Origin: Promethearchaeota archaeon
GTDB lineage: Archaea > Asgardarchaeota > Lokiarchaeia > Sigyniarchaeales > SOKP01
DNA length: 64,000 nucleotides
Assembly: GCA_016839765.1 (NCBI GenBank)
Contig: JAEOTP010000015.1
Location: forward strand, 15,978-79,977
Direction: 5' to 3'
A program made the position numbers and the translations under genes. Each line of letters opens with the position of its first letter. The first letter of the stretch is position 1. This document shows positions 9,674 through 64,000 of the stretch, one piece after another. The notes beneath the pieces were generated by a model. The model was not told where the DNA came from and did not search any database. It was given only the letters and a program-made list of their open reading frames with translations.

Positions 9674-9734
9674 TTTAATCTTTTTTTATTTACTTTTTAT
9701 TCCTGATTTTTTAATTATCCTAATTTAAATTCAA

Positions 9735-10217: not shown

Positions 10218-10237
10218 CAACGACTTTTTTGTCGTTG
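10218..10237. promoter_or_regulatory. Perfect palindrome CAACGAC-N6-GTCGTTG in the divergent region upstream of cooF
   Basis: Read directly. It is the only G+C-containing dyad in an otherwise very AT-rich 330-bp intergenic region, about 120 nt upstream of the cooF start. Confidence 0.3.
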
Positions 10238-10356
10238 TTTAGAAAAACTAATAAAGGTGAAATTCAAACACCTAAACTTAAAACCAATCTAAATATAAAA
10301 AATTATTTTTTATAAAAAAAAATTAAAACTAAATTTAAAATGAGGGAAGTCCAAAA

Positions 10357-12863: not shown

Positions 12864-12893
12864 AATTTAATTGAGAAAAAGGTGCAAAGGAAA

Positions 12894-14325: not shown

Positions 14326-15288
14326 ATGAACTTCAAAATAATTATCTATGGTCAAGAGGGTGTAGGAACCGGTACTTTTCTTAAGAAGTATGCTAAAACT
14401 CCTATACATGTAGATGATGAAATAGAAGAGATGAGGAGACCGTTCTCTGATACAATATATTACAATATAAGAAAAGAGTTCGATGAAAAATATACTGTAA
14501 GTTCCATAATGAATGAAATTAAAAATATTTACGATAACGCCTTACACAAATACAGTAATAGCATTCTTAATGCAGAATTGTTTATAAATCCAGACATACA
14601 AAAGGCATTTGGATTTAAAATAAAAATATCACCTGAGATTGATTGGTTATCTTTTATATTTGATTATAATGGTTTGAAAATAGTATGTAGAGGTTCTATC
14701 AAGACAGAAATAGCGAAAGATTTTTTTAAAGTCCATGGAACGGCTCTGGAATTAATTAATTTCTTCAAGAACTTTAATTATTCTGTAGAATTAATTGACC
14801 AGACAGAAACTAGTTCGTTTTCTACAAAGTCAGATAAGGAATTAATAGTTGGAGCAGATTTTTTCCTTAAAAAGATTTTGGTTGATGAAAATACCATTAA
14901 TTTACAAATTTGGCATATCACAAGCGAGGAAAGATTTCAATTTTTAATACCAACCTATATAAAAGGTTCCTTAGGAGCCATCTTAATATTCGATATTACA
15001 AATTCTAAAACATTATATCATTTAATCGAGGTTATTCGAATTGTTAAAGAAAATGTTGGTAATATTCCAATTATATTGGTTGGGAATAAAATTGATTTAA
15101 AAAAATCAAGAGAAGTTTTTAAAGAAGAAGGAAATTTATTTAAAGAAACATATAGTTTAGCCTCTTACATAGAGATTTCCTCTAATTTGGGATATAATAT
15201 TGAAACTGTATTTATAGAACTTGTTAAATTATTACTTGAATATACGCAGACAAACCAAAAGGATGGATTAAGCATTCCGAATCTCTAG
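14326..15288 (+). CDS. Rab-like small GTPase fold with degenerate G1/G3 motifs and a ~140-aa insertion (probable pseudo-GTPase)
   Basis: G1 is 'GQEGVGTGT' (the P-loop Lys is replaced). Residues 173-206 'IVGADFFLKKILVDENTINLQIWHITSEERF' align with Rab 'TIGVDF...LQIWDTAGQERF'. G4 'NKID' is intact and G5 is 'SSN'. Confidence 0.7.
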   Translation: MNFKIIIYGQEGVGTGTFLKKYAKTPIHVDDEIEEMRRPFSDTIYYNIRKEFDEKYTVSSIMNEIKNIYDNALHKYSNSILNAELFINPDIQKAFGFKIKISPEIDWLSFIFDYNGLKIVCRGSIKTEIAKDFFKVHGTALELINFFKNFNYSVELIDQTETSSFSTKSDKELIVGADFFLKKILVDENTINLQIWHITSEERFQFLIPTYIKGSLGAILIFDITNSKTLYHLIEVIRIVKENVGNIPIILVGNKIDLKKSREVFKEEGNLFKETYSLASYIEISSNLGYNIETVFIELVKLLLEYTQTNQKDGLSIPNL

Positions 15289-33044: not shown

Positions 33045-36005
33045 CTAAAAAAAAGCATCTAACTTCTTAGTTTCAATCTCTTTTTTTGATCTTTTTTGAT
33101 ACCCTTTATATATAATCTCTTCAAATTCAATATTCAAAGCGTCCAATACCTGTTCTAGTGCTGATTGTAAAAGATCTCTATATTTTGACACATCTAAATC
33201 CTGAAATTTTGCTAATTCCAGAACCTTCGCTCCAGTCTTGTCATTGCTTTTAATAAAACTTATTGTTTCCCCCTTTTGATACTTTTTTCCAGTGGCTTTA
33301 TGATGTTCTTTAGCTGCTCTTACATGTTGAGGAATTACCTTATCATATCTACTAATATCTTTCTGTATACTAATATTAATAGTGTAATCTTCTAAGTTAA
33401 ATGCATCAGGTTTACCTATTTTATTTCTATTATCCTTTATAATTTCAATTATTCTCTTTCTTGCTTTCTTAAATTCCTGATCATTAGTTACATTTTTTAA
33501 GATATCCAATATCTCATTGAAAACCTTTTTGATAAAATCCGGAGTATTTTTCTTTTTAGCCACTAATCCTTTTATATCAATATATTTCGTATCCTTATAT
33601 ATACCTACATAATTTTTTTTTCTCTGAGAAAGTGCTAAGAATTGGTATGTTTTTTCCTCTTCTAAATCTAAATCTAACTCTTTTTTGCTCCATTCAGATA
33701 TTTCTTTCATTTGTTGTTTCGTTGGGTTCGCTAAAAACACCGAGTCTGTATCGCCATATAATACTTCTACTCCTAATTCCTCTGCTTTTTTAATAGTCTG
33801 TTTGATTGAATATTGACCTATCCCAGTAGTACTTTCAGCAACTGGTAAGCAAAACAATGGAAAGTTTTGACTACCAAAAACTCCATAGGACCCATTTATA
33901 AATACTTTAAGAGCTTGTTGAATTGTTTGATAATAGCTCCTCTGTTTGGGAGAAGTATTTTTATCGCTTGATTTAGGTTTGAAAAATTTCACTCTAATGT
34001 CTCGGAAAAATCCTACAACATACGCAAATATTCCCATCTTATGTGTACATATATGATAAGGTGTTCCTTTCACAAAATTATTTTTATCATCTTCATGAGG
34101 ACAGAGTACAGTTTCATAAGAAAGATTAGATTCTTTAATAATAGAAGGATATAGGCTGGCAAAATCCATAACAACAACATTATAATGAATTCCGGGTACA
34201 GGTGGAACAACATAAGCTCCAAGAAATTTTTCATCATCAAATTTAGACATTAAGGCTCCACCTTTTTTTAATTCTGAGATCTCTGATCGCCTTGGAATGA
34301 GATATTCCTTTCTGCGGTGTTCAAAATAGAAGATACTCTGGATCCAAGTTGAAATTTGACGTCTAACCATTTCATGAATTGGCAATTTAGTTATCCTACA
34401 CAATAAAATGATTAAATTCCACACTAATGAATTATTGAACTGTGTCAATTCCAATGTTAAAATGGAATCTTTTAGATTGTACCACGTGAGAATATCATAT
34501 TCCATTTCATAAATTTCTTCTTCATGCTCGTATTTTTTTCTACCTAATAATGCTGCACTTATCGCATTTAGCGAAGCACTTTCATATGCTCCACCAAATG
34601 CATAACCAGAAATACTTCTATTAAAGAAAAAGTTAAATAAATCAATATGGACTCCCTTTCTGAGATCGCAATCTGATTTTGAAAGTAATCCATATCCTCT
34701 TTTTACATGTATAGGATTTAAATCTCTATCAATTTTTAATTTGTCTGCTCGATGAGACATATAATTCAGATCAAAATTATCTCCATTAAAGGTAATTATT
34801 ATCGGATATTCCCATAAAATCCTGAAAGTCTCCTCTAATAACTCCTTTTCATCTTTAAAATAGAAAAGTTGAGCATCAGAAGGAAAATCTTTATGAACTT
34901 TCCGATATGAGAAGCCCTCCCTTTCTAAAACATAAACAAACTTGAGTCCATCATTTGAAACAAATGAAACGCTAATTATCTCTTGTTTTGCGAGTTGAGG
35001 ATCAGGTATAATAAAATCTTCTGGTCCTAAATTAACTTCAATGTCCATTGCTAAACGCTTCACATCGGGTATTGGTGTAAGGAAAATATTCAAAAATTTC
35101 TCAGAAAATTCTTGTATCTCTGGAGATTCATCTTTAAAAACATTTCTAAGTTCGCTAGCCATTGTTTTTGATTCTTCTGAATCTTCTTCAAAACTTATTT
35201 TCTCAATTTTTCCATTCTTAATTTTATAAATTAGTCCAGGAATTAATTGTATATCGTATATATAATTCAAGTGGTATCTAATATCTGCCTCCCAGGCTTT
35301 AATATCATTTTTACCTAAAATATTTTTTATATTTAAACCTGAACCACCAATATTTGTAGGAGTTTTACCATAGATTTTTGAAATCTCGATTTCTTTATCA
35401 CTGATCAAATCATAACGCTTTATTTCCTCAAATCGCTTAAATCCGTCGTACTCCGTTATTTTCTTTTGTATTACATGCTCATTAATTCTTTCTTCATAGT
35501 ATAAATTTTTTAATTCCGATATTGGCTCCTTACTTAAACAGTATGGTTCATGGCCAGTTGTATCAATCCAGATCCTTATTTCATCTGAATCTAGATCATA
35601 AAATTTACAATAAGCTTTATTTTGCCCACCATCATAATCAACGTCGAGCAATAATCCTCTTTCTAGATTTTGAATAAGTTCTCCTTTTTTATTCAGATAG
35701 CGTATATATTTTGAGGAAACTGATTCACGAAATATTTTTTCCACCTTTATATTACCCTTTTTCAATCCAAAGGGTTCGGGATTTCCTTTAAAGAATAATT
35801 TCTGAGGAATTGATTTTAATTGAGACTCTTGTATTAAAATCTCTTTTTCTTCTTCAATATCATCTTTTTCAATTATTTTTTCTTCTAATGAGTCTTGTTC
35901 ATAAGTTCCTTTTTCTACCTTCGGTTTATCATCAACAAATGAAATAAGAGACTTTTGCTTTTGATCTGGGGTTTTTTCCTTATCAGATTTTTTGGAGCTT
36001 GGCAA
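33045..36005 (-). CDS. polB: Family B DNA polymerase (canonical catalytic motifs) with a Lys/Glu-rich N-terminal extension
   Basis: Exo I 'LAMDIEV', motif A 'DFASLYPSII', motif B 'KVFINGSYGVFG', motif C 'LYGDTDSVFL'. C-terminal 'KKLDAFF' is PIP-box-like. TTG start (no ATG within the first ~280 codons). Confidence 0.92.
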   Translation of the reverse strand: MPSSKKSDKEKTPDQKQKSLISFVDDKPKVEKGTYEQDSLEEKIIEKDDIEEEKEILIQESQLKSIPQKLFFKGNPEPFGLKKGNIKVEKIFRESVSSKYIRYLNKKGELIQNLERGLLLDVDYDGGQNKAYCKFYDLDSDEIRIWIDTTGHEPYCLSKEPISELKNLYYEERINEHVIQKKITEYDGFKRFEEIKRYDLISDKEIEISKIYGKTPTNIGGSGLNIKNILGKNDIKAWEADIRYHLNYIYDIQLIPGLIYKIKNGKIEKISFEEDSEESKTMASELRNVFKDESPEIQEFSEKFLNIFLTPIPDVKRLAMDIEVNLGPEDFIIPDPQLAKQEIISVSFVSNDGLKFVYVLEREGFSYRKVHKDFPSDAQLFYFKDEKELLEETFRILWEYPIIITFNGDNFDLNYMSHRADKLKIDRDLNPIHVKRGYGLLSKSDCDLRKGVHIDLFNFFFNRSISGYAFGGAYESASLNAISAALLGRKKYEHEEEIYEMEYDILTWYNLKDSILTLELTQFNNSLVWNLIILLCRITKLPIHEMVRRQISTWIQSIFYFEHRRKEYLIPRRSEISELKKGGALMSKFDDEKFLGAYVVPPVPGIHYNVVVMDFASLYPSIIKESNLSYETVLCPHEDDKNNFVKGTPYHICTHKMGIFAYVVGFFRDIRVKFFKPKSSDKNTSPKQRSYYQTIQQALKVFINGSYGVFGSQNFPLFCLPVAESTTGIGQYSIKQTIKKAEELGVEVLYGDTDSVFLANPTKQQMKEISEWSKKELDLDLEEEKTYQFLALSQRKKNYVGIYKDTKYIDIKGLVAKKKNTPDFIKKVFNEILDILKNVTNDQEFKKARKRIIEIIKDNRNKIGKPDAFNLEDYTINISIQKDISRYDKVIPQHVRAAKEHHKATGKKYQKGETISFIKSNDKTGAKVLELAKFQDLDVSKYRDLLQSALEQVLDALNIEFEEIIYKGYQKRSKKEIETKKLDAFF

Positions 36006-39686: not shown

Positions 39687-40298
39687 ATGGTTGAGTTGAA
39701 TAAATTCATAGAAGAGTTAAAAAGTTCACGAAATATTGTTCGGATAACGGTAGTAGGAGATGGTGCGGTAGGGAAAACAACTTTAGTCCGAGCACTTCTT
39801 CGAAAAACTAAAAATTGTTCTGGAAATCATTCAAATATTAATTTAATAGAGGAAAAGGAAATTAAGCGTACTCCCTTCATAGAGATAGAATCTTGGACAT
39901 ATAAAGATTTGATAATTCAGTGCTATGATTTAGCAGGCCAAAGAATTCCAGGTGCTCATCCTTTAGATATTTTACAAAGTCAAGTTATTAGTTCAATAGA
40001 TATTTTCATTTTTGTTTTCTCAGTTGATAGATATAAGTCTTTTGAAAACCTTAATAATTGGAGGACATTAATGAATTTAAATAACATGAGAAGGGATAAT
40101 AACGGATTAATACTTGTTGGAAACAAAATAGACTTAGAGAGAAATGTATCAAGAGGACTAGTACAATTAATTGCTGGGGAAGACAGATACTTTCATTCAT
40201 ATGTAGAAACAAGTGCAACAAAGGAAATTGGAATTGAAGAATTATTAGATGAAATTGTTAATGTTGGAAAAAAAATCTTAACATTTTACAGCTCTTAA
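39687..40298 (+). CDS. Ras-superfamily small GTPase with all G motifs intact
   Basis: G1 'GDGAVGKTT', G3 'DLAGQ', G4 'GNKIDL', G5 'ETSAT'. Confidence 0.85.
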   Translation: MVELNKFIEELKSSRNIVRITVVGDGAVGKTTLVRALLRKTKNCSGNHSNINLIEEKEIKRTPFIEIESWTYKDLIIQCYDLAGQRIPGAHPLDILQSQVISSIDIFIFVFSVDRYKSFENLNNWRTLMNLNNMRRDNNGLILVGNKIDLERNVSRGLVQLIAGEDRYFHSYVETSATKEIGIEELLDEIVNVGKKILTFYSS

Positions 40299-47148: not shown

Positions 47149-48333
47149 GTGTATATAATTAAAATAGAGTATGCAAATCGATTAGGGAGATTGCCTAAAT
47201 ATATTTTTGCTGCTATTGAAGAGCTAAAAGAACAGAAAAAAAAAGAAGGAATGGATTTAATTTCTCTCGGTATAGGAGATCCTGATTTACCAACTCCAAA
47301 TGTAATTATTGAAGAATTAATTAAACAAGTTAAATTACCTGAAAACCAAAATTATCCCTCCAGTATGGGTGAGCAAGAATTTAGAGAGGCAATAGCAAAA
47401 TGGAATAAAATAAGATATGGAATAAATTTAAACCCCTCTACAGAAGTTTCTCATGTCTTGGGAGGTAAAGAAGGAGTAGCAAACATTGCAAGAGCTTTTA
47501 TTAACCCAGGAGATCTCGTATTATGCCCTAATCCTGGATATCCTGTTTATGAAAATGGTGCTACAAAATTATGCGATGGAGAGCCATATTTAATGCCATT
47601 AAAAAAAGAAAATAATTTCTTACCAGAAATTGAAGCAATTGATAAAGAAGTCCTTAAGAAAGCTAAATTGATATATTTAAATTACCCTAATAATCCTACT
47701 GGTGCGATAGTTCCTAGAGATTATTTAAAAAAAATGATTGATTTTGCTGAAGATTATAATTTTATCATAGTTTATGACAATCCATATTCAGAATTCACCT
47801 ATGGTAATTATATTGCCCCCTCTATATTGCAATTTAGTTTAGATCACGTAGAAATCAACAGCGCATCCAAAATGTTTAATATGACAGGTTTTCGATGCGG
47901 TTGGATAGCTGGAAATGCTGAAATAATTGAGGGCCTAAGAAAAGTTAAATCTCAAATTGATTCAGGGGGTTCAATTTTTATTCAAAAAGCACTAATTAAG
48001 GGTCTCAATGAATATACTTCGCAAAAAAAACCAGAAATAGTCGCAGAAACTATGCGAATTTATGAAAAAAGGCGAGATGTATTAGTTAATGGTTTAAATA
48101 AAATGGGGTGGAAAACTGAGAAACCAAAAGCAACTTTTTATATCTGGACTCAAATTCCCGAGGGGGAAGAAAATAGTATGGAATTCACTAAAAAACTAAT
48201 AAATGTGGGCGTTATTATCACACCTGGTATTGGATTTGGAAGATATGGAGAGAGATTTGTTAGATTTGCATTAACAAAATCTGTCGAAAGAATAAATGAA
48301 GCTTTAGAAAGGATTGAAAAAATAATTAATTAA
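47149..48333 (+). CDS. Class I/II PLP-dependent aminotransferase (AspC / LL-diaminopimelate aminotransferase-like)
   Basis: 'ISLGIGDPDLPTP', 'YPNNPTG' and 'NSASKMFNMTGFRCGW' (PLP lysine). GTG start. Confidence 0.85.
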   Translation: MYIIKIEYANRLGRLPKYIFAAIEELKEQKKKEGMDLISLGIGDPDLPTPNVIIEELIKQVKLPENQNYPSSMGEQEFREAIAKWNKIRYGINLNPSTEVSHVLGGKEGVANIARAFINPGDLVLCPNPGYPVYENGATKLCDGEPYLMPLKKENNFLPEIEAIDKEVLKKAKLIYLNYPNNPTGAIVPRDYLKKMIDFAEDYNFIIVYDNPYSEFTYGNYIAPSILQFSLDHVEINSASKMFNMTGFRCGWIAGNAEIIEGLRKVKSQIDSGGSIFIQKALIKGLNEYTSQKKPEIVAETMRIYEKRRDVLVNGLNKMGWKTEKPKATFYIWTQIPEGEENSMEFTKKLINVGVIITPGIGFGRYGERFVRFALTKSVERINEALERIEKIIN

Positions 48334-48939: not shown

Positions 48940-50259
48940 ATGAAGAAAAAAATAGTTCTAATAGGAGCTGGTTCAACTTCTTTTGGGCCTTCAATGTTTA
49001 CCGATTTATATTTAAGCAAAATTTTAGATGGTTCTACAATAATACTCCATGATATTGATAAAGAAAAATTAGAAATCATATATGAATTACTTACGATTGA
49101 AAATGAAGTGAGGAATAATAAATTCATAATTGAACGTACAAAGAATAGAAGAAAAGCTTTAAAGGATGCAGATTTCATAATTAATTCTATTGAAGTTGGT
49201 AATCGAATAGAACTTTGGAGGCAAGATTATAAAATACCTAGAAATTATGGCTCTACACAAGTTTTAGGAGAGAATGGGGGTCCAGGGGGCATGTTTCACT
49301 CATTTAGAGTAATTCCTCCAATTATTGAGATTGTAAAGGATGTAGAAAAAATCTGTCCAAATGCATTTTTCATTAATTTTTCTAATCCAATGTCCAGAGT
49401 ATGTTTAGCTATTAAAAGGAGTACTAATCTCAATTTTATAGGACTTTGTCACGAAATCCATTCTCTTGAACATCATATTCCACTCATATTTAATAATAAG
49501 CTTGGAGATATTAGAATGATTGTTGCAGGATTAAATCATTTTGGTTTCTTATTATCTCTTGAAGACTTAAATTCTGGTAAGAATTTATTGCCAAAATTTA
49601 ATGCTAAAGCTATGGATTACTTTAAAAACCATGAAGATCGATTTGAATTTTCAGAGCTAACATTTAAAGTATTTGAAAAATTTGGATATTTTCCCCACGC
49701 AGGTGATAATCATATGGGTGAATATCTCCAATTTGCTGAAGAATTTACAAAAAAACAAGATATGATTGATTGGATTGACCGAACTGATGATGAAAATCAG
49801 GGTATTTATCAGCGAGTATTGAGATATTACAAGCGACTTATAAAAGGAAGATATCCGAAAAAAGGGATGCTATCTCGAAGCCCATCTGGAGAAAGAGCTA
49901 TACCCATAATAGAAGCTTTATTAACGGATGCAAATTCTTATGAAAATTCAGTTAATATTCCAAATGACGCCCTTATTGAAAATTTGCCGCGAGACTTAGT
50001 TATTGAAGTACCTGTACGGGTTGACAAAAATGGAGTTCATGGTATTAAAATAGGTTCAATGCCAAGAAATATTGCGGCATTATTGCGCATAGAGGCTACG
50101 ATTCAAGATCTATGTGTTGAAGCTATATTGCAAAAATCACGAGATTTAGCAATTACCGCCTTAGCGCTAGATCCTAATGTAGGTAGTTTCAAAAGAGCAG
50201 AAAAAATTTTTGAAGAAATGACAGAGCTTCAAAAAGATTACTTACCTACTTTCAAATGA
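48940..50259 (+). CDS. Glycoside hydrolase family 4 (NAD+/Mn2+-dependent glycosidase)
   Basis: N-terminal 'KIVLIGAGSTSFGP' Rossmann motif, 'FINFSNPM', 'GLCHE' and 'GLNHFG' are typical GH4 segments. Confidence 0.75.
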   Translation: MKKKIVLIGAGSTSFGPSMFTDLYLSKILDGSTIILHDIDKEKLEIIYELLTIENEVRNNKFIIERTKNRRKALKDADFIINSIEVGNRIELWRQDYKIPRNYGSTQVLGENGGPGGMFHSFRVIPPIIEIVKDVEKICPNAFFINFSNPMSRVCLAIKRSTNLNFIGLCHEIHSLEHHIPLIFNNKLGDIRMIVAGLNHFGFLLSLEDLNSGKNLLPKFNAKAMDYFKNHEDRFEFSELTFKVFEKFGYFPHAGDNHMGEYLQFAEEFTKKQDMIDWIDRTDDENQGIYQRVLRYYKRLIKGRYPKKGMLSRSPSGERAIPIIEALLTDANSYENSVNIPNDALIENLPRDLVIEVPVRVDKNGVHGIKIGSMPRNIAALLRIEATIQDLCVEAILQKSRDLAITALALDPNVGSFKRAEKIFEEMTELQKDYLPTFK

Positions 50260-50274
50260 ATGACTAAAATTCAT

Positions 50275-50299
50275 ATTTCTATTTTTTCAAAATAGAAAT
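50275..50299 (+). terminator. Perfect 11-bp hairpin (ATTTCTATTTT-ttc-AAAATAGAAAT) 16 nt after the GH4 stop, followed by TTT
   Basis: Read directly. Its position suggests a 3'-end structure. Confidence 0.35.
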
Positions 50300-50470
50300 T
50301 TTATTAAAACGATTATAGGGAATTTAGGAAAAATAGTAGTAAATTATATATTTTAGTTGTAAAAATGTATGAATTACTAGCAAAATTGTATGAAATATTT
50401 ATAAGACAAATTTATATTAATATATACTTAAAGGTATTAATATATTAAGTGATTTGACTTTTATTAGCTC

Positions 50471-53400
50471 ATGGAATCCAAAAATATTAAAAAATCTAGT
50501 GAAAGAATTGAAAAAGCTACCACATTTCTCACAAGGTTGTGGTGGTTTTTTCTTTTTCTAATCGGGATTCCTTTAGTAATTGCTACTGTTAGCTATTTTA
50601 TTATCCAATATATCATAAAAGATGTTTATTTTTCTATAGGGCTTGCTGTAATTGTATATATGTTTTCAATTTTCTTTTTCTATAAAAGTTTTGACCAATA
50701 TCGAAAAAAACCTCTTTTTATTAACAATCAAAACAACCTTTCTGCCAGAATTCACATACTTTTTATAGTTAGCATCCTATCTTTAGTGGTTACCCCTATT
50801 TTCATTTTGGTTGCACCGCAGGGATACTATTTTGAATTATTTCCTTTAATTTCGTTCTGCCTTTTATATAACATTATTTATTACTATTATTACTTTCAAC
50901 CTGTAGAATATTTTGATGTATCTGAATCAAGATTCAAGCGTAAACTTAGTTTCAAATCAACTTTAAAACAATTTCATAATATAGTGATTTTGATAAATTT
51001 CATTATCCATGTATTTTTTTTGATTTATACTTATTATACTAAGTTATTATGGCTAATATTGGTAACTTTAGTTACCAATATATTTTTTTATATCTTTACC
51101 CTACTATCTACAATTAAGCTAAAGAAAAAGATAAGGGATGCTATCGAGAAAGGAGTACTATTTCAAGAATATATAATCAAATTTAAGCAAAAATTTTCTG
51201 TATCAATTATCAGTCTTTCTTTTTTATTATTAATACAATTACCATTTGATATCCTTCTTTTTAATACTTTATCTGGTGTTGTTTATACCAATTTAGATTA
51301 TATATTATTTGCGTTTGGAGCTATAATTTTCATTTTCTTATATTTAAAACTAAGGATTTATATTTCAATACATTACAAAAGAAATCTATTGATATTAAAT
51401 GGGAATAAATTAAATAATTCAAATCAAGAACCTTCAGATTTCTTAATTAAATATCAGAAATGGAACATGATATTATCAATATTTTTCATTGTCTTTACCT
51501 CTTTATTTTCTTTAGGAATTAATTTCCCAATTATAATTGTAATCAGCATTCCAGTAATCATTATTTCTACTTATTTTGAGCAAAAAGCAAATTATTGCCC
51601 AAAGAAATATAGTCGATATGTATATCTTTTAAGTAGTGTAATATTATTGGGATTTGGTATTTTTTGGATTTTACCCTCCTTTTTCGATACTCTGAGTTTA
51701 GAGATTCAATTAATTATATTTCTTGTGAGTTTCTATTTGGATTTACAAATTTTTATTCAATATGACTATTTTGATAGGAATAAAATTATATTTATACAAC
51801 ACCTATTAGCTTTTACTTGTTTCTTAGTAATTACTTACTCATTTTATCCAATTATTTCATCAATTTATTTTGATTTTCTTATTGAACCCTTATTGATTAA
51901 TATCGTCAATATCCTTTTCTATGCATTATTATCTCTCTTAGCATTATTAGGAACATTCTATTATTTATATTTTCGATATTTTAGGAAAAACCAATGGAAG
52001 AGTTTCAATCTAATTTTAAATATCACTATAATCTCTATTGAAATCCTTTTATTTGCTCTTATAAGTTTGAAGATTTTCATTTCTATGGATGTGATTGCAT
52101 TTATTAACTATGTTTTAGTTTTTACTATTCTTTTACCATTAATTTTTGATTTATTTATCGGATTTAACTATATTCTTGGAATAAATACTGCTAAAAAAAG
52201 CTTCAAACAATTATATTCTTCTAGTTGGATTTTAGTTTTAATGATTTTTACTTTTATTTTTTACTTTACTTTTAATAATTTTATATTCCTAATTGCTGAT
52301 TTATTATATCTCTCTGCTCTTTCTCAGATTTTATTAAAATTTGGAGAAGAAATTGACCAAATTTCTCACGAAACTTTTAGTAAGGTTATGAAATTTAATT
52401 CCGTTTTTATTATTATAGAGATTTCTTGCTTAATTTTTTCAATATCGTATATAAATTTCGCTTTTATCGGAATTATCAATAATATTTTACTCTCTTGCTA
52501 TATTACATTGATTTTTAATGCATTTTTGTGTAATATTCTAAAAGAAAAACTGTTTTCAAAATCAATAGTAGTATTAATTAATGAAATTTGTTTATTATTT
52601 ACTACAGGACTCACTTTTTATTATCTATATCAATATACTTTCGGATCTTATTATATTTATGTTCTACCAATCCTGTTTTCCAGCCTTTTCTTTTTCCTCC
52701 CAATATATTATACCAAATCCTTAAAAAAGTATCCAAATTTGATAAAAAATATTACCACCGTAGCCAGTATAGTATTTTCTATTTCTTTATCCCTCATACC
52801 CACAATCTTGAGCTTGGAATTTGTAAGATTAGGTAAATATGTTGATTTAATTACCATTTTCAATTTAACAGCTTTCATTATTTATGGAATTTTACTTTTT
52901 ATTATAGCTTTCTCGCGCAAGCTGAAAATTAGGGAAAAAAGAATAAAATTAGTATTAATAATACAGATATTAATCGAATTTATTTTGGCAGTAACAGCAG
53001 TATTTTATTACGTGAGTATTGCTTTAAAGGGTACCCTTTTTGAGTATTCAGTTCCTTTAGTAGCCACCTCAGCATTTCTTTTTATTCCTTTTATATTCTT
53101 ATATAAAAAGCAATTTATTGGTATCAAAATAAATAAATTGCTTCTTTTTTCTAATTTTATTTTTCTCTGGGGTAGTATAATATCAATTCCATCCATTTAT
53201 AGTATAGAATTTTTCAGATTGGGTAATTATTTGGAATTTTACTATATGTTAATAATAATTATCGTATTATTCTATGGATTTTTGAAATTTTTATATCCTT
53301 TATCTAAATACATCGAAATTAAAGATAAATTTAATTATATAATATACACATTACAAATTTTCACTTGGTTTATTATTACTATTGCTATTTCTTTAATTAT

Positions 53401-56400
53401 TCCTTTTAACTTTTTAATCCAATCGCTTAATTGGTTAAATACTTTAGTAGTATGCAGTACATTTTTATTATTTTTTGGATTAAATATTATTAATCTCCCT
53501 CAGATAGAAAATTTCAAACAGATAGTTTTTGAAAATAAAAAAAGCAAGTTAGATTTTTATAAAATTTATAAAATTTATGAATATTACAAAAATATAATAT
53601 ATTTTGGGTTAATTTTCTCAGTTTCTTCCTTAATATATTCATTAATTCAATCTTTGAATTTACCCTACCTAATTTTTCAGTCTAGCAATAGTTTGATGAC
53701 AATTTCTTTTGATTTAGGTATTTTTTCAGGTATTTCTCTAATTATATTTCATCTGAGTAATTTACTTATTGAAATTGAATTTAGGAAAACAAAAGAAATA
53801 ATTGAAACACTTTTATGGTTAGCTATAAAATTCAATCTACTATTAATTATATCATTATTCCCTTTTCAGATCTCAATTATTAATAGGATTTTTTTAATAA
53901 TTTTAATATTTACCGTATTAAGTCCAATTACGATTAAATTTTTTAGAAATCACTTTATCATTTTAGAAGAAACTTATTTAAACACTAAAAAAATTATAGG
54001 AATCTTATTTTTTATTTCATTATTAGGTTTTTTTCTTGATTTTTTGTGGAATATTTATATAAGTGTACCATATTTTTGGAGTAATACTTATGTTTTACTT
54101 TCTCTAATCATTAGTATAGCTTTATTATTTTCTAACTATTATTTTTCAGTTTTTAATGATTATATCGAGAAAAAATCTGAGCTTAATATTTATGGACTCT
54201 ACTTTCAATCTTTTCTAATTTTTATAATTTTATTATTCATGAATATAGGCCCCTCTTTAGTTCTTTTAGTGATCATTTTTATAATCCTCTATCGGAAAAG
54301 GATTAGGAATATATACTTACGTTTAGTCAACTACCTGGTAGGTAGCTATGTGTGTTTGATAGTAGTGAATATATTTATAATTAGTTTCGATCTACTATCT
54401 ACATTTATATATATTCATCCTGGATTTTATGTATGTGTTTATATATTATCATTTATTTTAATATTATTCATATCAATTATTCTAAATATCAAGAAGATCA
54501 ATGTTTTAGAAGAATATTTATTAGATTTATTAATTCCTAGTTTAATTTTTACGTCAATATTAATTTTTAATCTCATTCCTCTTTTTTATAATATAACAGT
54601 TTCTGTTGCAATTCTCTTACTTTTATTAAGTATCTTCTTTTATCGTCAAGAAGATAAAAGGTATATATGGTTTATTCGCCCTTGTGCCTTATTATTTTTA
54701 TTTGACCTAATAAGTATTAGCTCTTATTTCATAATATTTAGCTTACCTCTTTATTATGAATACAATCTGATTCTAAGCTCTACACTTACCTTTAGCATAA
54801 TAGGTTTTTGTTTTGCCTTGTTTTTTCATGATTTACGAGGTAAACTAAAAAGGAGATTAATTTCCATTATTCTTATATTAAGTGTAGCTAGTTCTTTCAC
54901 ATTTTCTTATCTTCTCTTAAAAATTTCGTTCTCTCTCACTCTATCTGATATTTATCCATGGATTATTGCTGGAAATATTGCTATTATTCTTTCATATATT
55001 GCCATTGGAATTTATCAATGGAAAATATCATGGGCAATTTGGAAAGCAGGCTATTGGATTTGGATATTTACCCCTATAATTAATTATTTAATAATTGCTG
55101 AATCTTTTACTGAAATTAATATCTATACCAATGCTCTGAATTTTTTTGGGATACCTATTTATGGCTCACATTTGATTGCTTTTGTTATTTGTTTATTAAT
55201 ATCTTTACCTTTCTGGTATACTTGGATAAAAGAACATTTTAACCAAGTCTTATTTATCATTTGGGGATTAAGTTTATTTTTGATCTATTGGTTTAGTCAA
55301 AATGCATTTTTTGGATCTACCTTTTTAATTAATTTATCATTTGTAGGAATATCTATAATCTTTTTAATGCCTATTTTTTATAGGTTAAGACTCTGGAAAA
55401 TACTTTCGATTTTGTGGCTAGCTTTTACTAGTATTTTAACAATTTTCGTTTCCTATCTATTTTTAGAAACTAAATTGGGATTAGACATGATCATATCAAT
55501 GGATTTAATTCTAATCGGATTTCTATTTATAATTTTCTCTTTCTTTCCAAATATAAGGGCATTAAAAAATATTGTACTAATTATCGCTTATTCTATCGCA
55601 ATAACTGGTATCTTTCTAACAATATTGAATTTAATTTTTTCAATTACTTACAACCTGCCTGTGTCAATCAATATGTCTTTCATTATAATAGCATTTAGTC
55701 TATTTACTTCTCGAATATTGAAATTAAATCGAAAATTATTCAATTTTTTAATTTCTACAATTTTAACTATTAACTTTTCACTTTTAACATTCTTTACTTT
55801 TAGTTTAATTCCAAATTTTGAGCTATTCGCTCTATTTTTCGCTATAAGCGTTTGTGGAGGCTCCCTTCTAATATTTAATCGCTATAGGATGATTTCCCCT
55901 ATTAAAAAGATTATACCATTAATGATTCTTTCTACTGGTGTTGCATTAACATTGTCTTCCTTAATTTATATTTTTATACCGAATTCCTTTTTTATTGTAT
56001 CTGCCACATTTATTGCTGTAATTCTATTATTAAATTACCCTACTTTAGAGTATATTCGCCATATATTATTGTATTTAGTTCCAATACCTTTCTGTTTGGT
56101 TATTTTACACTTTTTGTCATTAATAGGACTATTTCAACCATTATTAAATTTAATTTTAATTGGATTGATTTTATATACCTCAATTTTTCAAATTTTTACT
56201 TATTTGAAATATGGTACGGTTAAGATAGTTAATCTTTTGTCTTTTATATTGAATTCAACCTATCTTTCATTATTAATTACAATTCTTAGTCCTGTTACGA
56301 TTTTATATCAAATTCTCGAATTTTGTATAATTTGGTCAATTTTAATAATATTTTGTATTAACTATCTTGAAAGGGCAGGTCAGGAACTTGTTAAAGAAAA

Positions 56401-58987
56401 AACTATTTCGACTTTTTTAAGAATTAGTAGCTTAATCACAGTATTGCTTTATTTTGAAATAGCTGTTCTAATTTTTGTGGTATTAAATGAGTTCTTGGTA
56501 TTAGAAATTACGATAAATATTGTAGCATTCTTTGGAACTTTATTTCTATTATCATTTCTAGATATTATTTTATTGAAAAGAGTGAATAAGAAAATAATTT
56601 ACCCAATTAACATTCTCAGCTACTTATTTATTTCAATTAGCTTTTTTATCTTTTTCAATCAATTTTTAGCTATAAATGTGCAATTAATCTTCTTAAATCT
56701 AATAATATTATTCACACTGCAGTTCTATACCGTTTATATTATTTTTGCTTTCTTAAAACAATATGAGAGTTTTGATAAGGATAAATTAAGTACTTATCGC
56801 AAAATTATTCAAACAATTCAAGTAAATATTATATTTTTCATTATGGGTTTATTTGGATCCTCTTATTTCACAACACTTATCTTAGATAGTGAACCGATTC
56901 TTAGTGGGCTGCCTTCAATTTTCCTATTCTTAATGATATTTACTTTCATACTTTTTACTCTTAATCATATAGTTAGGAATAAATTTAGGCAACACATTTT
57001 ATTTGGATACTATATCATATTTTTCATTAATTTCGCATTCTTTTGGGTCTCTTTTATAATTATTTTTAATCTGATTAACACGCTTTCCATTAGTCTATTA
57101 TTATTTACTATTACAATATTAATTTCTTATCTTGTTTATTCAGTTGGTAATATTTACAAGGAAAAAGTAAAAATAGGGCAAATTAATAAAATATATTCAT
57201 TAATCATCTTCTTTCTTTACTTAGAGATTTCAATAATCCTCTTTGGATTATCTTATATATATCTTAATATATTTGAAAGCATTCTTATTTCACAAATAGC
57301 CTTATTTTTGATTTCCATAATGGAAAGGTATATAATACGAAAAGTTAAAACTACTATAGTTTTTATCCTCCATACAATAAGTTATTTTAATATTAGCTGG
57401 TCTCTCTTTGTTGTTATATTTCAATTTACTCAAAATATTTTTGATTTAAATCTAATTTTCTTTATTCTTATGCAGTTTTATACAAATAATTCGTATTTTA
57501 TTACTAGATCTAAATTTAATTTATCTAAAGAACCTGATTTTAAGAAGTGGAAGCTAATTAGACAGAAAGTAATTGGATCTTGTTTTTATTTAACTTTATT
57601 ATTATATATTCTAAATTATTTAATACTCGTTATTACCGAAATTCAATTAATTATTTTAATTTTAGGCGTAATAATTCATGGATTAATGTATATTGATAAG
57701 TTTATCTTTAAATTCTTAGCTGAACTTTCAAAGTATGTAATAATTTTCTCAATTTTCTTGATATTAGGCACCTCATTTTTATATTCTTTAGGTTGGGTTT
57801 TTATTTTTTCATTTCAAATAATCCCCTTAATAATTCTTTTAGTTTTACTCGAAATAACATATCTCATAAAATTATTTGAATTATGGGACGTTAAAAAAGT
57901 CAACTTTTCTAAAATTAGAAATCCCTTGATAAATTTGTACTATATGAACTTTTTAATATGGCCGTTTTTTTATTTAGGCTTCGAAATTTTTAATATCTTA
58001 GCTATAATGTTGATCTTTTCAATTATCTTGATATTTTTATCTGTAATAGATATACGTATCAATACAATTAATCAAAAATTAAGAATAACAATATTAAAGA
58101 CTGGTTATATTATGTTTGTCTCATTATTATCTTTAGAAATATTTTTCTTTCTGGAATTTGTAATTCAACCAAATCTTCTATTCAATTTTTCAGTATCAGG
58201 ATTATTTTTCCTCATTACAATTGGATTCATAATAAAGCCATTCAAAAGACATAGAGCTCTTTCATTCTTTTATTGGTTATCTATTTTTTCACTGATAAGT
58301 CTAATAATATATTTTGCTTATTTAAGTGGTTGGAGTTTCACAGTATTGCTAGTGGGCATTGTATTATATCCTTTCATATTTATGCTTGAAGAATTAAAAG
58401 AATTATTTAACCATTTGTTAGAATACCTTCATAAGTTTATTTTAAAGATTAAACGCATTATATCTTTTGTTTATAGAAAATTTATTAATTTCCTTAAAAA
58501 TAACTTTAGAATAATCCAGATAATACTCTCTATATTTATTGGAGCAATAACAGGTATAACTTTCTCAGATATGGTATTAAACATCTTAGATCTATATCAT
58601 GCAACACTGCTATCTCTTGCTACCTTTGGAATTGCTTATGCTATTACAGATTACGTCTGGTATCATACGTACGTTAAAAAATTAGGTGATATTAAACAGA
58701 TATTTAGGCAAAAATTAAAAATCTTTATTATAATATGGATAAGTTTTTCCAGCTTTATTTTTGCTTTAATATTACCTATAATAGAATCTATTCTGTATCA
58801 AATTTTCCTTATTTTAATACCATTTTGGGGATTAGGTGCGATATTAATCTGGGTCGTAAATAGAAAAGAAGCTAAAGAAAAAATTTCAGTTAAAGTGAGA
58901 TTTTTTATTACCTTATCTACAATAATCTTATTTATTGTGTGGATAGGTATTATATTGCTTTGGTACTTTACTGAGGTTCAAACTTAA
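50471..58987 (+). CDS. Giant (2,838 aa) polytopic integral membrane protein with internal repeats, unknown function
   Basis: An uninterrupted 8.5-kb frame in AT-rich DNA. The translation is nearly continuous 20-25-aa hydrophobic segments separated by short basic/polar loops. Diverged repeats are visible (see finding). Confidence 0.85.
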   Translation: MESKNIKKSSERIEKATTFLTRLWWFFLFLIGIPLVIATVSYFIIQYIIKDVYFSIGLAVIVYMFSIFFFYKSFDQYRKKPLFINNQNNLSARIHILFIVSILSLVVTPIFILVAPQGYYFELFPLISFCLLYNIIYYYYYFQPVEYFDVSESRFKRKLSFKSTLKQFHNIVILINFIIHVFFLIYTYYTKLLWLILVTLVTNIFFYIFTLLSTIKLKKKIRDAIEKGVLFQEYIIKFKQKFSVSIISLSFLLLIQLPFDILLFNTLSGVVYTNLDYILFAFGAIIFIFLYLKLRIYISIHYKRNLLILNGNKLNNSNQEPSDFLIKYQKWNMILSIFFIVFTSLFSLGINFPIIIVISIPVIIISTYFEQKANYCPKKYSRYVYLLSSVILLGFGIFWILPSFFDTLSLEIQLIIFLVSFYLDLQIFIQYDYFDRNKIIFIQHLLAFTCFLVITYSFYPIISSIYFDFLIEPLLINIVNILFYALLSLLALLGTFYYLYFRYFRKNQWKSFNLILNITIISIEILLFALISLKIFISMDVIAFINYVLVFTILLPLIFDLFIGFNYILGINTAKKSFKQLYSSSWILVLMIFTFIFYFTFNNFIFLIADLLYLSALSQILLKFGEEIDQISHETFSKVMKFNSVFIIIEISCLIFSISYINFAFIGIINNILLSCYITLIFNAFLCNILKEKLFSKSIVVLINEICLLFTTGLTFYYLYQYTFGSYYIYVLPILFSSLFFFLPIYYTKSLKKYPNLIKNITTVASIVFSISLSLIPTILSLEFVRLGKYVDLITIFNLTAFIIYGILLFIIAFSRKLKIREKRIKLVLIIQILIEFILAVTAVFYYVSIALKGTLFEYSVPLVATSAFLFIPFIFLYKKQFIGIKINKLLLFSNFIFLWGSIISIPSIYSIEFFRLGNYLEFYYMLIIIIVLFYGFLKFLYPLSKYIEIKDKFNYIIYTLQIFTWFIITIAISLIIPFNFLIQSLNWLNTLVVCSTFLLFFGLNIINLPQIENFKQIVFENKKSKLDFYKIYKIYEYYKNIIYFGLIFSVSSLIYSLIQSLNLPYLIFQSSNSLMTISFDLGIFSGISLIIFHLSNLLIEIEFRKTKEIIETLLWLAIKFNLLLIISLFPFQISIINRIFLIILIFTVLSPITIKFFRNHFIILEETYLNTKKIIGILFFISLLGFFLDFLWNIYISVPYFWSNTYVLLSLIISIALLFSNYYFSVFNDYIEKKSELNIYGLYFQSFLIFIILLFMNIGPSLVLLVIIFIILYRKRIRNIYLRLVNYLVGSYVCLIVVNIFIISFDLLSTFIYIHPGFYVCVYILSFILILFISIILNIKKINVLEEYLLDLLIPSLIFTSILIFNLIPLFYNITVSVAILLLLLSIFFYRQEDKRYIWFIRPCALLFLFDLISISSYFIIFSLPLYYEYNLILSSTLTFSIIGFCFALFFHDLRGKLKRRLISIILILSVASSFTFSYLLLKISFSLTLSDIYPWIIAGNIAIILSYIAIGIYQWKISWAIWKAGYWIWIFTPIINYLIIAESFTEINIYTNALNFFGIPIYGSHLIAFVICLLISLPFWYTWIKEHFNQVLFIIWGLSLFLIYWFSQNAFFGSTFLINLSFVGISIIFLMPIFYRLRLWKILSILWLAFTSILTIFVSYLFLETKLGLDMIISMDLILIGFLFIIFSFFPNIRALKNIVLIIAYSIAITGIFLTILNLIFSITYNLPVSINMSFIIIAFSLFTSRILKLNRKLFNFLISTILTINFSLLTFFTFSLIPNFELFALFFAISVCGGSLLIFNRYRMISPIKKIIPLMILSTGVALTLSSLIYIFIPNSFFIVSATFIAVILLLNYPTLEYIRHILLYLVPIPFCLVILHFLSLIGLFQPLLNLILIGLILYTSIFQIFTYLKYGTVKIVNLLSFILNSTYLSLLITILSPVTILYQILEFCIIWSILIIFCINYLERAGQELVKEKTISTFLRISSLITVLLYFEIAVLIFVVLNEFLVLEITINIVAFFGTLFLLSFLDIILLKRVNKKIIYPINILSYLFISISFFIFFNQFLAINVQLIFLNLIILFTLQFYTVYIIFAFLKQYESFDKDKLSTYRKIIQTIQVNIIFFIMGLFGSSYFTTLILDSEPILSGLPSIFLFLMIFTFILFTLNHIVRNKFRQHILFGYYIIFFINFAFFWVSFIIIFNLINTLSISLLLFTITILISYLVYSVGNIYKEKVKIGQINKIYSLIIFFLYLEISIILFGLSYIYLNIFESILISQIALFLISIMERYIIRKVKTTIVFILHTISYFNISWSLFVVIFQFTQNIFDLNLIFFILMQFYTNNSYFITRSKFNLSKEPDFKKWKLIRQKVIGSCFYLTLLLYILNYLILVITEIQLIILILGVIIHGLMYIDKFIFKFLAELSKYVIIFSIFLILGTSFLYSLGWVFIFSFQIIPLIILLVLLEITYLIKLFELWDVKKVNFSKIRNPLINLYYMNFLIWPFFYLGFEIFNILAIMLIFSIILIFLSVIDIRINTINQKLRITILKTGYIMFVSLLSLEIFFFLEFVIQPNLLFNFSVSGLFFLITIGFIIKPFKRHRALSFFYWLSIFSLISLIIYFAYLSGWSFTVLLVGIVLYPFIFMLEELKELFNHLLEYLHKFILKIKRIISFVYRKFINFLKNNFRIIQIILSIFIGAITGITFSDMVLNILDLYHATLLSLATFGIAYAITDYVWYHTYVKKLGDIKQIFRQKLKIFIIIWISFSSFIFALILPIIESILYQIFLILIPFWGLGAILIWVVNRKEAKEKISVKVRFFITLSTIILFIVWIGIILLWYFTEVQT

Positions 58988-59341: not shown

Positions 59342-59887
59342 ATGGGAGAAGAACAAGATAATACGAAAATAAATGTAAAAGATTGGATAATCATTAGTAC
59401 TACTATGATAGGAGCAGTTTTAACTATTCTTGCTCTAATTTGGCAACTTAAACCCTCTTATGGGATTATTACGGTTACTTTTCTGTTATTACTTTCATTT
59501 ATATTATTTGTTAACTCGGTATCAGCAAATTCTAAAGCAAATTTTGAAATTAGGGCAAAAAAGATTCCAGAAAAACAAATATATAGGTTTGTATCCTTTG
59601 CTGAATATACATTTGGCCTTGGTTTTACTTTTGTTATAACTGCATTTTCTCTGCTTGGTTACAAATATTTTATAGATTTCGTAGGACGCACTTTAATCGC
59701 ATTGGTTTTACCAATTTCTTTTATGGTAACAGCTTGGTTTATGATTTTTATATATAACACAATAAATTATTCTGGAAAGCCATTTAAGAGTATTAGAAGC
59801 TTAAAACGAAATTTATGGATAATACTAGAATTAAGCAGTTTAGCCTTTATAATATTGGATTTCTTTGAAATTATTTTAATTCCATAA
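59342..59887 (+). CDS. Membrane protein (about 5 TM segments), unknown function
   Basis: 181 aa with hydrophobic segments (WIIISTTMIGAVLTILALIW, IITVTFLLLLSFILFV, and others). Confidence 0.5.
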   Translation: MGEEQDNTKINVKDWIIISTTMIGAVLTILALIWQLKPSYGIITVTFLLLLSFILFVNSVSANSKANFEIRAKKIPEKQIYRFVSFAEYTFGLGFTFVITAFSLLGYKYFIDFVGRTLIALVLPISFMVTAWFMIFIYNTINYSGKPFKSIRSLKRNLWIILELSSLAFIILDFFEIILIP

Positions 59888-62900: not shown

Positions 62901-64000
62901 TTATCCAATAAAACAAGATAAATTTCTTTGGTTAGATTTTTTCTTATAATCTCGCTTTAACAATTCCTCAAGTTCAGGAAATTTGAAAGGAAAAATATTT
63001 TCGAAAGCTCTCTTTAATAATTCAACGTACTTCTTTTGATCGTATTGATGTATCTTTTCATCATAGAGATCAGAGAGAATAACCTTCCGTTCAGGGAAAT
63101 CAGGATCGGCCTCTGCATTAAGAATAATATATCGTACATTTTTTCCAGGGGTTGCGATAATACCAGAATCTTCTAATTGTCTGGCAGCTACAGCTTGATA
63201 GGAGTTTACTTTATATGCTGATGGCTTACGAGAGATTCTTTGTTTGATTGTAAGCTCTTGGCGAGATATTTTCCCGGAATAGACTCTATCAGTATATTCA
63301 TAGAGTTTTCTTTTTGCCCTTGGAATCCTTTTTATAAACTCATCAACGGTTTGAGCGCCTTTGAATACATCAATAAAGGCACATTGGGCATCTTTCACAA
63401 TAGTGGGCATATCTCTGCGCCGAACTTCGATACCCCTAACTTTAATCTCTCCTGTACTTTTTATGCCCCAATAATGACTAAGAGCAGGAATATCTGGTTC
63501 AGCTCTAGAGGGAAGAAATACAATAATATTATATCTACCTTCCCAGCTCATTGGAATGCTTGTATGTTCCGATATTCTATCTGCAATTTTTTTAGTAATA
63601 TCCTCAAATTCCTCTGGTGATTTTCCCTTTGTATCTTGAAGCCATATGGAATCAACAATACCATGAATGATTTTGCAACTGTATGCTTCGGCAATTTCAG
63701 CTGCACGCATAAGAAATTCGCGTGCAAATGCACAAACGGTTTGATGAGCTTCAATTTTACCGAAGCGGGCATTTTTAAATCCTAAATATCCAAAACTTAC
63801 AACAAGCACCCATTTTAAGGCAATATCGGTAAATTTATAGCGAAGATTTCCTGTTTTTCGAACATATTCCTTATATTGCAACCTTTTTCTTAGAGGAAGT
63901 TTTATTGATTTTGAGATTATTCCTTCTCTTTTTGAGCAGATATGAAAATCCAATCCTGGTACTTTCATCCCTGTTCCATCATCTTTGCAGCATTTACAAT
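62901..64000 (-). CDS. Second family-B DNA polymerase paralog, C-terminal part (5' end outside the window), with a non-canonical motif C
   Basis: Motif B-like 'KWVLVVSFGYLGFKNARFGKIEAHQTVCAFAREFL' (compare Pfu-type 'KLLANSFYGYYGYAKARWY...SVTAWGR'). Motif C is 'IIHGIVDSIWL' instead of Y-x-DTD-S/G. The frame is open to nt 64000 (...CKCCKDDGTG precedes the listed Met). Confidence 0.8.
   Translation of the reverse strand, partial: CKCCKDDGTGMKVPGLDFHICSKREGIISKSIKLPLRKRLQYKEYVRKTGNLRYKFTDIALKWVLVVSFGYLGFKNARFGKIEAHQTVCAFAREFLMRAAEIAEAYSCKIIHGIVDSIWLQDTKGKSPEEFEDITKKIADRISEHTSIPMSWEGRYNIIVFLPSRAEPDIPALSHYWGIKSTGEIKVRGIEVRRRDMPTIVKDAQCAFIDVFKGAQTVDEFIKRIPRAKRKLYEYTDRVYSGKISRQELTIKQRISRKPSAYKVNSYQAVAARQLEDSGIIATPGKNVRYIILNAEADPDFPERKVILSDLYDEKIHQYDQKKYVELLKRAFENIFPFKFPELEELLKRDYKKKSNQRNLSCFIG

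Follow-up and report, generated by a model that had tools for sequence, protein, structure and literature searches.

A giant orphan gene of Asgard archaea encodes a membrane protein with about 80 predicted transmembrane helices, partly built from tandem repeats of variable number

Main finding

The subject of this analysis is a giant gene at positions 50471 to 58987 of a 64,000-nucleotide stretch of contig JAEOTP010000015.1 from a Promethearchaeota archaeon; this whole stretch is referred to as the window. The gene is almost certainly genuine, single-copy and chromosomal, and it belongs to an orphan family found only in Asgard archaea; it codes for a giant with about 80 transmembrane (TM) helices, short loops and a positive-inside pattern. 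The protein was built in part by tandem duplication of 4-TM and 8-TM units, the copy number of which varies between lineages, and these arrays flank a conserved core with a Trp-rich irregular module that is of interface or re-entrant type. This architecture is new, and no precedent for it was found.

An intact gene for a protein made of transmembrane helices

50471 to 58987, forward strand: giant gene, ATG-started open reading frame (ORF) of 2,838 codons, based on translation, hydropathy, orthologues and the ratio of non-synonymous to synonymous substitutions (dN/dS)

A first reading of the DNA from its letters alone (the original prediction) described a single ORF of 2,838 codons with the other frames being fragmented. 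The ORF is present as described, and the other five frames are interrupted by 157–358 stop codons in this region. Given the local base composition (A 0.32, T 0.45), 2,838 codons would lack a stop by chance with a probability of about 6e-97. The encoded protein is rich in Ile (18.6%), Leu (16.2%) and Phe (12.3%), it has a grand average of hydropathicity of +1.12, and 92.6% of its residues are located within windows of 19 amino acids (aa) with a hydropathy above 1.0. Counting non-overlapping Kyte-Doolittle peaks above 1.6 results in 80 TM helices, and in about 86 if long hydrophobic runs are split, which agrees with the roughly 80 TM segments originally estimated. For the first ~640 aa the presence of many segments was confirmed, with 16 peaks counted instead of the 18 proposed. 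The longest hydrophilic, i.e., non-membrane, run comprises 24 aa, in line with the expectation that such stretches never exceed 25–30 aa, and the median of the longest non-membrane run over 97 full-length relatives is 24 aa as well. The five peptides quoted in the original prediction are all in frame and at the positions given for them. Between positions 50001 and 60000 of the window, the GC content over the giant gene is 0.22–0.25 compared to ~0.30 in the flanks, accompanied by a strong skew of T over A; this is due to the F/I/L/Y-rich codon content rather than to a foreign origin.

As originally suggested, homologues were found in Asgard archaea. A search of 5.8 billion protein clusters yielded 82 relatives, nearly all of which are 2,000–3,750 aa long, the few shorter ones being located on short contigs; intact orthologues span 2,400–3,750 aa. 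The relatives derive from Lokiarchaeota, Promethearchaeota and other Asgard metagenome-assembled genomes (MAGs), with divergent family members reaching into the Sigynarchaeota, and they are at best named “hypothetical protein” or “membrane protein of unknown function”, as exemplified by the uncharacterised orthologues CEE42_09440 of Loki_b31 and LCGC14_0684080. Such unannotated Asgard orthologues show 27–97% identity, the same length class and the same synteny.

Two sequence patterns describe the family, i.e., Y[QYK]W[KRE][IVL]SWxIW in the core and [RK][EQK][KRN][IL][SA][IV]KWRF close to the C-terminus. Both were used to scan one genome per prokaryotic species, resulting in 79 giant-gene loci, all of them derived from MAGs. 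The family is defined by a length of 2,400–3,750 aa, a nearly complete TM character and both motifs; the window protein has all of these, the C-terminal motif with a single mismatch. An intact frame is present at 45 distinct, independently assembled loci (2,393–3,341 aa; contigs of up to 1.8 Mb), and the window protein aligns end to end with the 45 orthologues at 27–61% identity. The dN/dS ratio is 0.20 compared to an 85%-identical orthologue (2,373 codons) and 0.19 compared to 60%-identical ones, with an overall range of 0.19–0.33, and the start codon as well as the motifs are invariant in the family. These intact conserved frames at many loci together with a dN/dS of ~0.2 exclude an assembly artefact, which the original prediction had named as a possible refutation, and a compositional pseudo-ORF. 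Its claim of a genuine gene is thereby supported by purifying selection across about 79 Asgard genomes.

Several database records carry the gene under unexpected taxonomic labels. Locus L014 (DATKTW010000160.1) was deposited as “Candidatus Nanopelagicaceae bacterium”; as its PadR, radical-SAM and PolB genes are 76–82% identical to those of the window, it is probably a mis-binned Asgard contig. Similarly, the loci L005, L008, L013, L036, L040, L041, L057 and other records with JBHL accessions are labelled Hod-, Hermod-, Thor- or Odinarchaeota. Their giant gene is up to 85% identical to that of the window (L008) and the flanking genes, where present, are 60–95% identical; these phylum labels look mutually inconsistent.

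Absence of similarity to described families

The original prediction stated that the protein contains no soluble or catalytic domain and belongs to no characterised family, and both statements held in all searches made. With the window protein, hmmscan resulted in 0 Pfam-A families at E ≤ 10, NCBIfam gave no match at E ≤ 0.01 and profile searches of all PDB chain sequences returned 0 matches at E ≤ 10. Precomputed Pfam domains were absent from the 82 relatives and, upon comparison of 33 core and 23 C-terminal family segments to Pfam at E ≤ 1, no recurrent match was obtained. The repeat unit did not match a hidden Markov model (HMM) of a known transporter or enzyme family, an outcome that would have contradicted the original prediction. 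Furthermore, no description of a giant Asgard family of this kind was found in the literature, and the functional roles mentioned originally are speculation, as had been said at the time.

An exhaustive hmmsearch with the core profile against 1.84 billion representative proteins resulted in 54 proteins, the clear matches of which are giants of the family or terminal fragments thereof. The single apparent outsider, P0126 (196 aa; ENA; 1,058-bp contig), is nearly identical to the giant-family consensus in residues 37–82 (FYRQHDERYKWFIKPCVLLAVFD) and matches the Pfam model of the TMEM175 K+ channel in residues 70–122. A link to TMEM175 was rejected, as P0126 is probably a fragment or chimera on a contig of ~1 kb and does not establish homology; PF06736 (TMEM175) did not match the window protein. 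Finally, a word-indexed search with the repeat-unit profile returned one 174-aa protein, with the 8,000 candidates scored being saturated by hydrophobic words and full-length members being missed.

Tandem units of four and eight transmembrane helices

Internal repeats were assessed by chunk-versus-chunk BLAST with shuffles preserving composition and hydrophobicity class, and by segment-wise hhalign with reversed-profile controls. Moreover, unit HMMs were iterated along 46 full-length proteins, with reversed-sequence controls giving 0–1 matches. In the BLAST comparison, aa 701–841 matched aa 828–971 with 66.6 bits and aa 1959–2087 matched aa 2214–2338 with 62.8 bits, while the shuffle controls usually reached 40–47 bits and at maximum 54.7 bits. 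Using hhalign on family profiles, the same two pairs scored 136 and 108 compared to a maximum of 24.4 in the reversed control, the second pair (unit B copies 2 and 3) having an offset of 254 aa. The following units were defined:

52556 to 52945, forward strand: repeat unit A, copy 1 (aa 696–825), 4 TM; unit HMM 114–126 bits, hhalign 136
52943 to 53335, forward strand: repeat unit A, copy 2 (aa 825–955); unit HMM 103–119 bits
53072 to 53914, forward strand: super-unit B, first full copy (aa 868–1148), ~8 TM; 15 bits at first, 122–152 bits once included
56339 to 57109, forward strand: super-unit B, second full copy (aa 1957–2213); unit-B HMM 140–177 bits
57113 to 57841, forward strand: super-unit B, third full copy (aa 2215–2457); unit-B HMM 157–216 bits
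57896 to 58222, forward strand: weak echo of unit B (aa 2476–2584); hhalign 35.5 with a probability of 80%, control maximum 24.4

Unit A comprises 129 aa (4 TM) and unit B ~255 aa (8 TM). The first copy of unit B overlaps copy 2 of unit A, showing that unit A is half of unit B, and a half copy of super-unit B is located at aa 738–871. For unit A, the HMM gave 0 matches on reversed sequences at E ≤ 0.1; in its copy 1 the loops following TM2 and TM4 are rich in K/R and a conserved EFxRLGxY follows TM3. The third echo of the original prediction (aa 2474–2496) has a counterpart in the hhalign match listed above and is weakly supported; the unit HMM does not recover aa 2476–2584 at E ≤ 1e-3. It was considered whether the whole protein consists of one repeat, and this was rejected as the iterated unit HMMs settled at 2 copies of A and 3.5 of B and did not extend to other parts of the protein, with clean controls. 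The earlier claim of a protein built from diverged repeats is thus correct in that the repeats exceed chance and too broad in that repeats can be detected in only about a third of the protein.

The repeat copies are 21–35% identical at the protein level, the unit alignment is devoid of a near-invariant column and the ionisable residues differ between the copies. Within the family set of 45 loci, 1–4 copies of unit A and 3–4 copies of unit B are present per protein, and P0059, which is outside this set, visibly contains extra tandem unit-B-like copies. Orthologues furthermore differ by insertions and deletions of 126 and 252 alignment columns inside the repeat regions, which are whole multiples of the unit. 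These unit-sized differences and the copy counts show that the unit number is evolutionarily plastic.

Conserved core, termini and structure models

Two parts of the protein were modelled with AlphaFold2 using the family alignment, i.e., aa 1250–2000 (model 1; predicted local distance difference test score (pLDDT) 79, predicted template modelling score (pTM) 0.53) and aa 1950–2838 (model 2; pLDDT 76, pTM 0.43). Both are predicted to consist nearly completely of long helices of 20–30 residues, with aa 1515–1590 as the exception. Along the modelled core, every K/R-rich loop is followed by a K/R-free one and vice versa, constituting a positive-inside pattern; the K/R-free loops have a length of 3–11 aa and a conserved acidic motif was not seen in them. 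The regions outside and between the repeats are as follows:

50471 to 51430, forward strand: N-terminal module (aa 1–320), ~8 TM; dispensable in part of the family
54518 to 56020, forward strand: most conserved core (aa 1350–1850); conservation per 50 aa 0.55–0.72 compared to ~0.45 elsewhere
55013 to 55240, forward strand: Trp-rich irregular module (aa 1515–1590), from the secondary structure of model 1; conservation peak
58388 to 58510, forward strand: amphipathic helix (aa 2640–2680), ~40 aa, EELKELFNHLLEYLHKFILKIKRIISFVYRKFINFLKNNF; largest non-membrane element
58874 to 58903, forward strand: C-terminal motif (aa 2802–2811), directly before the last TM helix

In the core, invariant W, P, N, S, Y and F residues accumulate, and the highest conservation (0.72) is reached at aa 1501–1550. 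The Trp-rich module, the sole non-canonical membrane element of the protein, is predicted to start with the motif YQWKISWAIWKxGW, followed by four short helices, a beta-hairpin (aa 1556–1563) and two short helices. Its first part, YQWKISWAIW (aa 1515–1524), was chosen as the best pattern of the family. Towards the C-terminus, the amphipathic stretch is part of a continuous helix of 78 residues in model 2 (model residues 672–749, corresponding to aa 2621–2698); this region contains the longest hydrophilic run and an invariant E2640. The C-terminal motif has the family consensus [RK]EK-ISIKWRF and reads KEKISVKVRF in the window protein, V for W being the sole mismatch to the pattern; E2800, K2808 and R2810 are invariant.

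The N-terminal module shows an alignment occupancy of 0.69–0.82 compared to about 1.0 elsewhere, and a subgroup of ~2,540 aa covers only 89% of the window protein. In P0090 and P0078, a CxxC..CxxC zinc ribbon of ~25 aa is inserted in the loop equivalent to aa 143–160 (positions 50897–50950), suggesting that this loop is cytoplasmic; in the profile scan of P0090 the zinc-ribbon matches were below threshold. Other family members contain acidic low-complexity inserts of 40–146 aa elsewhere. Longer relatives were examined for extra soluble domains, and these inserts and the zinc ribbon are the sole soluble additions seen.

When the models were compared to 350,542 PDB chains with Foldseek, neither of them had a match at E ≤ 1e-3; the best matches reached E = 0.6 and E = 3.8e-3 at TM-scores of about 0.1. 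The great majority of these insignificant matches are soluble alpha-solenoid, TPR or designed repeat proteins. The list of model 1 includes only three membrane proteins (MurJ, an ESX-3 component and NorA; E ≥ 1.6, TM-score ≤ 0.14), and no channel or transporter was present among the top 50 of model 2.

Genomic context

47149 to 48333, forward strand: class I/II aminotransferase, LL-diaminopimelate aminotransferase-like (Pfam, NCBIfam)
48940 to 50259, forward strand: family-4 glycoside hydrolase (GH4), alpha-galactosidase-like, upstream neighbour (Pfam and NCBIfam matches)
50260 to 50470: intergenic spacer of 211 bp, AT-rich, upstream of the giant gene
59342 to 59887, forward strand: unannotated ORF of 181 aa with ~5 hydrophobic segments, downstream neighbour

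The gene order Fer4/TrmB (reverse strand), aminotransferase, GH4 and giant gene is widely conserved. In 32 of the 45 loci, GH4 is the immediate upstream neighbour in the same orientation, and it is kept even at 30% identity of the giant protein; the aminotransferase is found upstream in 40 and Fer4/TrmB in 31 of the 45. Downstream, genes for PolB, DUF8156, DUF3795 and Rad51 are often present, and some members have UxaE/UxaC (upstream), an FG-GAP protein or ABC transporters as neighbours. In all 32 loci, at least 109 bp separate GH4 from the giant gene. The neighbours are functionally mixed, the gaps at least 109 bp long and the block missing in some members, which points to an inherited gene order and not to an operon. 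The spacer at 50260 to 50470 probably holds the giant gene’s own promoter. Deriving the function from synteny was considered and rejected in view of the functionally mixed GH4/aminotransferase/Fer4-TrmB/PolB/Rad51 block. The 181-aa ORF has no match in Pfam, NCBIfam or PDB; in 16 of 52 loci a counterpart is encoded no more than 3 kb downstream of the giant gene, and it could be a partner subunit or a coincidence. In the same genomes, the giant protein shows a median identity of 35% compared to 66–78% for its neighbours, and this faster divergence fits a constraint mainly by hydrophobicity and packing.

The content of the 64-kb window is Asgard-like, with two Ras/Roc GTPases, genes for carbon monoxide dehydrogenase/acetyl-CoA synthase (CODH/ACS) and family-B polymerases. 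The small GTPases (Ras/Roc/Arf-type) at 14326–15288, which has an N-terminal extension of ~160 aa without Pfam match, and at 39687–40298 represent a eukaryote-like signature typical for Asgard genomes. Positions 8267–14120 contain the CODH/ACS cluster (CdhC-like ACS beta subunit, prismane/CooS-type CODH) followed by a pyridine-nucleotide-disulfide oxidoreductase. Two family-B DNA polymerase genes are located on the reverse strand at 33045–36005 and 62901–63968, the latter being a 355-aa ORF that matches the polymerase domain only, while its syntenic counterparts have ~800 aa. A 704-aa N6-adenine DNA methylase, Eco57I/type IIG-like, is encoded at 1904–4018 (reverse strand).

Proposed mechanism and alternatives

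With more than 90% of the protein buried in the bilayer and nothing protruding to bind a soluble partner, the giant protein probably acts on or within the membrane. It is tentatively proposed to be an array of helical hairpins embedded in the membrane, which would organise or shape the membrane or carry its tension, and which would owe its specificity to the core and the C-terminal module. The helical hairpins would form an extended palisade, a “membrane solenoid”, occupying on the order of 100 nm² of the bilayer and serving as a membrane-organising, membrane-shaping or tension-bearing scaffold. Length and footprint would be set by the variable repeat arrays, while the conserved core and the C-terminal module would account for a specific function, for example self-association or the formation of a small conduit. 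A scaffold is favoured because it is consistent with a plastic repeat number, with the fast divergence and with the solenoid-like models. Arrays with a variable copy number of modules are also found in structural repeat proteins, and the lack of enzymatic or transporter signatures in Pfam, NCBIfam and PDB profiles points in the same direction. The modelled arrays would resemble soluble alpha-solenoids (TPR/HEAT; Ski3, Ctr9, LGN) in their antiparallel helical hairpins and variable copy number. These proteins are the top Foldseek neighbours, albeit insignificant ones, and TM-scores of about 0.1 represent no real structural match. Moreover, they are water-soluble with helices of 12–20 residues, whereas those of the Asgard protein have 20–30 residues, are hydrophobic and follow the positive-inside pattern.

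Several observations weigh against a scaffold. The strongly conserved irregular core has no obvious need in a pure scaffold. Furthermore, about 14 conserved polar or ionisable residues are buried in hydrophobic segments (Q443, E524, N566, E650, K1120, D1190, N1538, N1734, D2031, E2252, H2301, H2403, E2461 and R2810), which suggests that something polar is bound or conducted. With pTM values of 0.53 and 0.43, the overall shape of the models is uncertain, and the solenoid geometry, as modelled, is derived from the helix pattern and the kind of Foldseek matches, with TM-scores of ~0.1. Finally, none of the 79 loci is from a cultured strain.

A rather unlikely alternative is a mechanosensor or channel by analogy to Piezo, in which the core or the C-terminal module would be the ion pathway and the 4-/8-TM arrays a footprint turning tension or curvature into gating. 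According to PMC9256749, no membrane protein found so far passes the membrane more often than Piezo (38 TM helices per chain), the blade of which is composed of nine 4-TM units. Like Piezo1 and Piezo2, the Asgard protein is very large (about 2,500–2,800 aa), overwhelmingly embedded in the membrane and combines less conserved repeat arrays with a conserved module; its tandem 4-TM units, which may be comparable to those of the Piezo blade, belong to flanking arrays of variable copy number. An irregular, possibly re-entrant region at the conservation peak, conserved ionisable residues in hydrophobic segments and the long amphipathic helix near the C-terminus would also fit, although a correspondence of the ~40-aa helix to the Piezo beam would be hypothetical. 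However, the Pfam Piezo models did not match and neither did the PDB sequence profiles, the sequences of which presumably include Piezo1/2 chains, and no Piezo chain was among the Foldseek matches listed, i.e., similarity in sequence or fold was not detectable in any of these searches. The Asgard protein has about twice the number of TM helices, it lacks the anchor and large loops, and its non-membrane stretches of at most 24 aa leave no room for a Piezo-type extracellular cap. Its conserved module is central and not only C-terminal, and its units comprise 129 and 255 aa with loops of 3–12 aa. The resemblance to Piezo is an analogy in design and not membership.

It is also unlikely that the protein is an ion- or solute-translocating array, the 8-TM modules of which would move protons, metal ions or a substrate by means of buried acidic and His residues, maybe tied to the sugar-catabolic genes upstream. 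Conserved buried E/D/H/K residues support this, especially E2252, H2301, H2403, D2409 and E2461 in one unit-B copy (copy 3), which are 87–100% conserved in 46 sequences. The arrangement of a TM helix, the 40-aa amphipathic helix and a further TM helix near the C-terminus and the presence of GH4 (32 of 45 loci) or, in another member, of UxaE and UxaC upstream add to it. The membrane arm of complex I and Mrp consist of chained antiporter-like 14-TM subunits (NuoL/M/N-type, PF00361) with buried Glu/Lys/His residues and the lateral helix of NuoL. The Asgard protein shares with them the in-membrane array of helical modules, the buried Glu/Lys/His and a long amphipathic helix between TM helices. In contrast, these systems comprise several separate subunits and not a single chain, PF00361 (Proton_antipo_M) had no match in the Pfam/NCBIfam scans and no fold match, and the buried charges of the Asgard protein are not conserved between the repeat copies. 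Transporter and antiporter families remained unmatched in Pfam, NCBIfam and PDB, and known transporter superfamilies (MFS, ABC permeases, RND, APC and others) showed neither a profile nor a fold match; Foldseek gave no significant membrane-protein match (three for model 1 at E ≥ 1.6, none in the top 50 for model 2). The gap of at least 109 bp and the mixed housekeeping neighbours (aminotransferase, PolB, Rad51), which are absent in some members, furthermore speak against a tie to the upstream genes.

It is quite improbable that the protein is a giant membrane enzyme with lipids or lipid-linked glycans as substrates, in which the core or an H/D/E cluster would provide an active site on the cytoplasmic interface. 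Conserved His, Asp and Glu residues near the cytoplasmic helix ends in unit B copy 3, the highly conserved core as an interface module and the often adjoining glycoside hydrolase would be in accord with it. However, GT-C and other polytopic membrane enzymes gave no profile match, desaturase, CAAX-protease-like and other membrane-enzyme families were unmatched as well, neither a soluble domain nor a conserved acidic motif in the extracytoplasmic loops was seen, and ~80 TM helices are, to our knowledge, far more than any known membrane enzyme needs.

Finally, a non-functional sequence, be it an artefact of base composition in T-rich DNA, a repeat assembly that is collapsed or chimeric, or a decaying pseudogene, can be dismissed: the low GC content and T skew mean that T-rich frames give F/I/L/Y-rich, TM-like peptides and internal repeats could in principle mislead assemblers, but the frame is too long to be open by chance, it is intact and under purifying selection at 45 loci with invariant motifs and start codon, and the repeat copies are too diverged to collapse in an assembly.

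Meaning for Asgard archaea

If the annotation holds, the known ceiling of TM helices per polypeptide is roughly doubled (Piezo: 38; PMC9256749). This raises the question how an 80-helix chain without a soluble domain is inserted and folded and whether it may act beyond the bilayer. The family is apparently restricted to Asgard archaea, making it a lineage-specific membrane component worth characterising, and it offers a clean target as it is single copy, with strongly conserved motifs suitable for antibodies and mutagenesis and with natural variants in repeat number. Asgard archaea are the closest prokaryotic relatives of eukaryotes and membrane architecture is central to models of eukaryogenesis. 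In a bold and rather doubtful interpretation, they would encode the most membrane-spanning protein yet seen, an independent Piezo-like “footprint” machine in which expandable 4-/8-TM arrays around a re-entrant core sense or impose tension or curvature. If this were true, the protein could have a part in the unusual protrusions and dynamics shown by the membranes of these relatives of eukaryotes.

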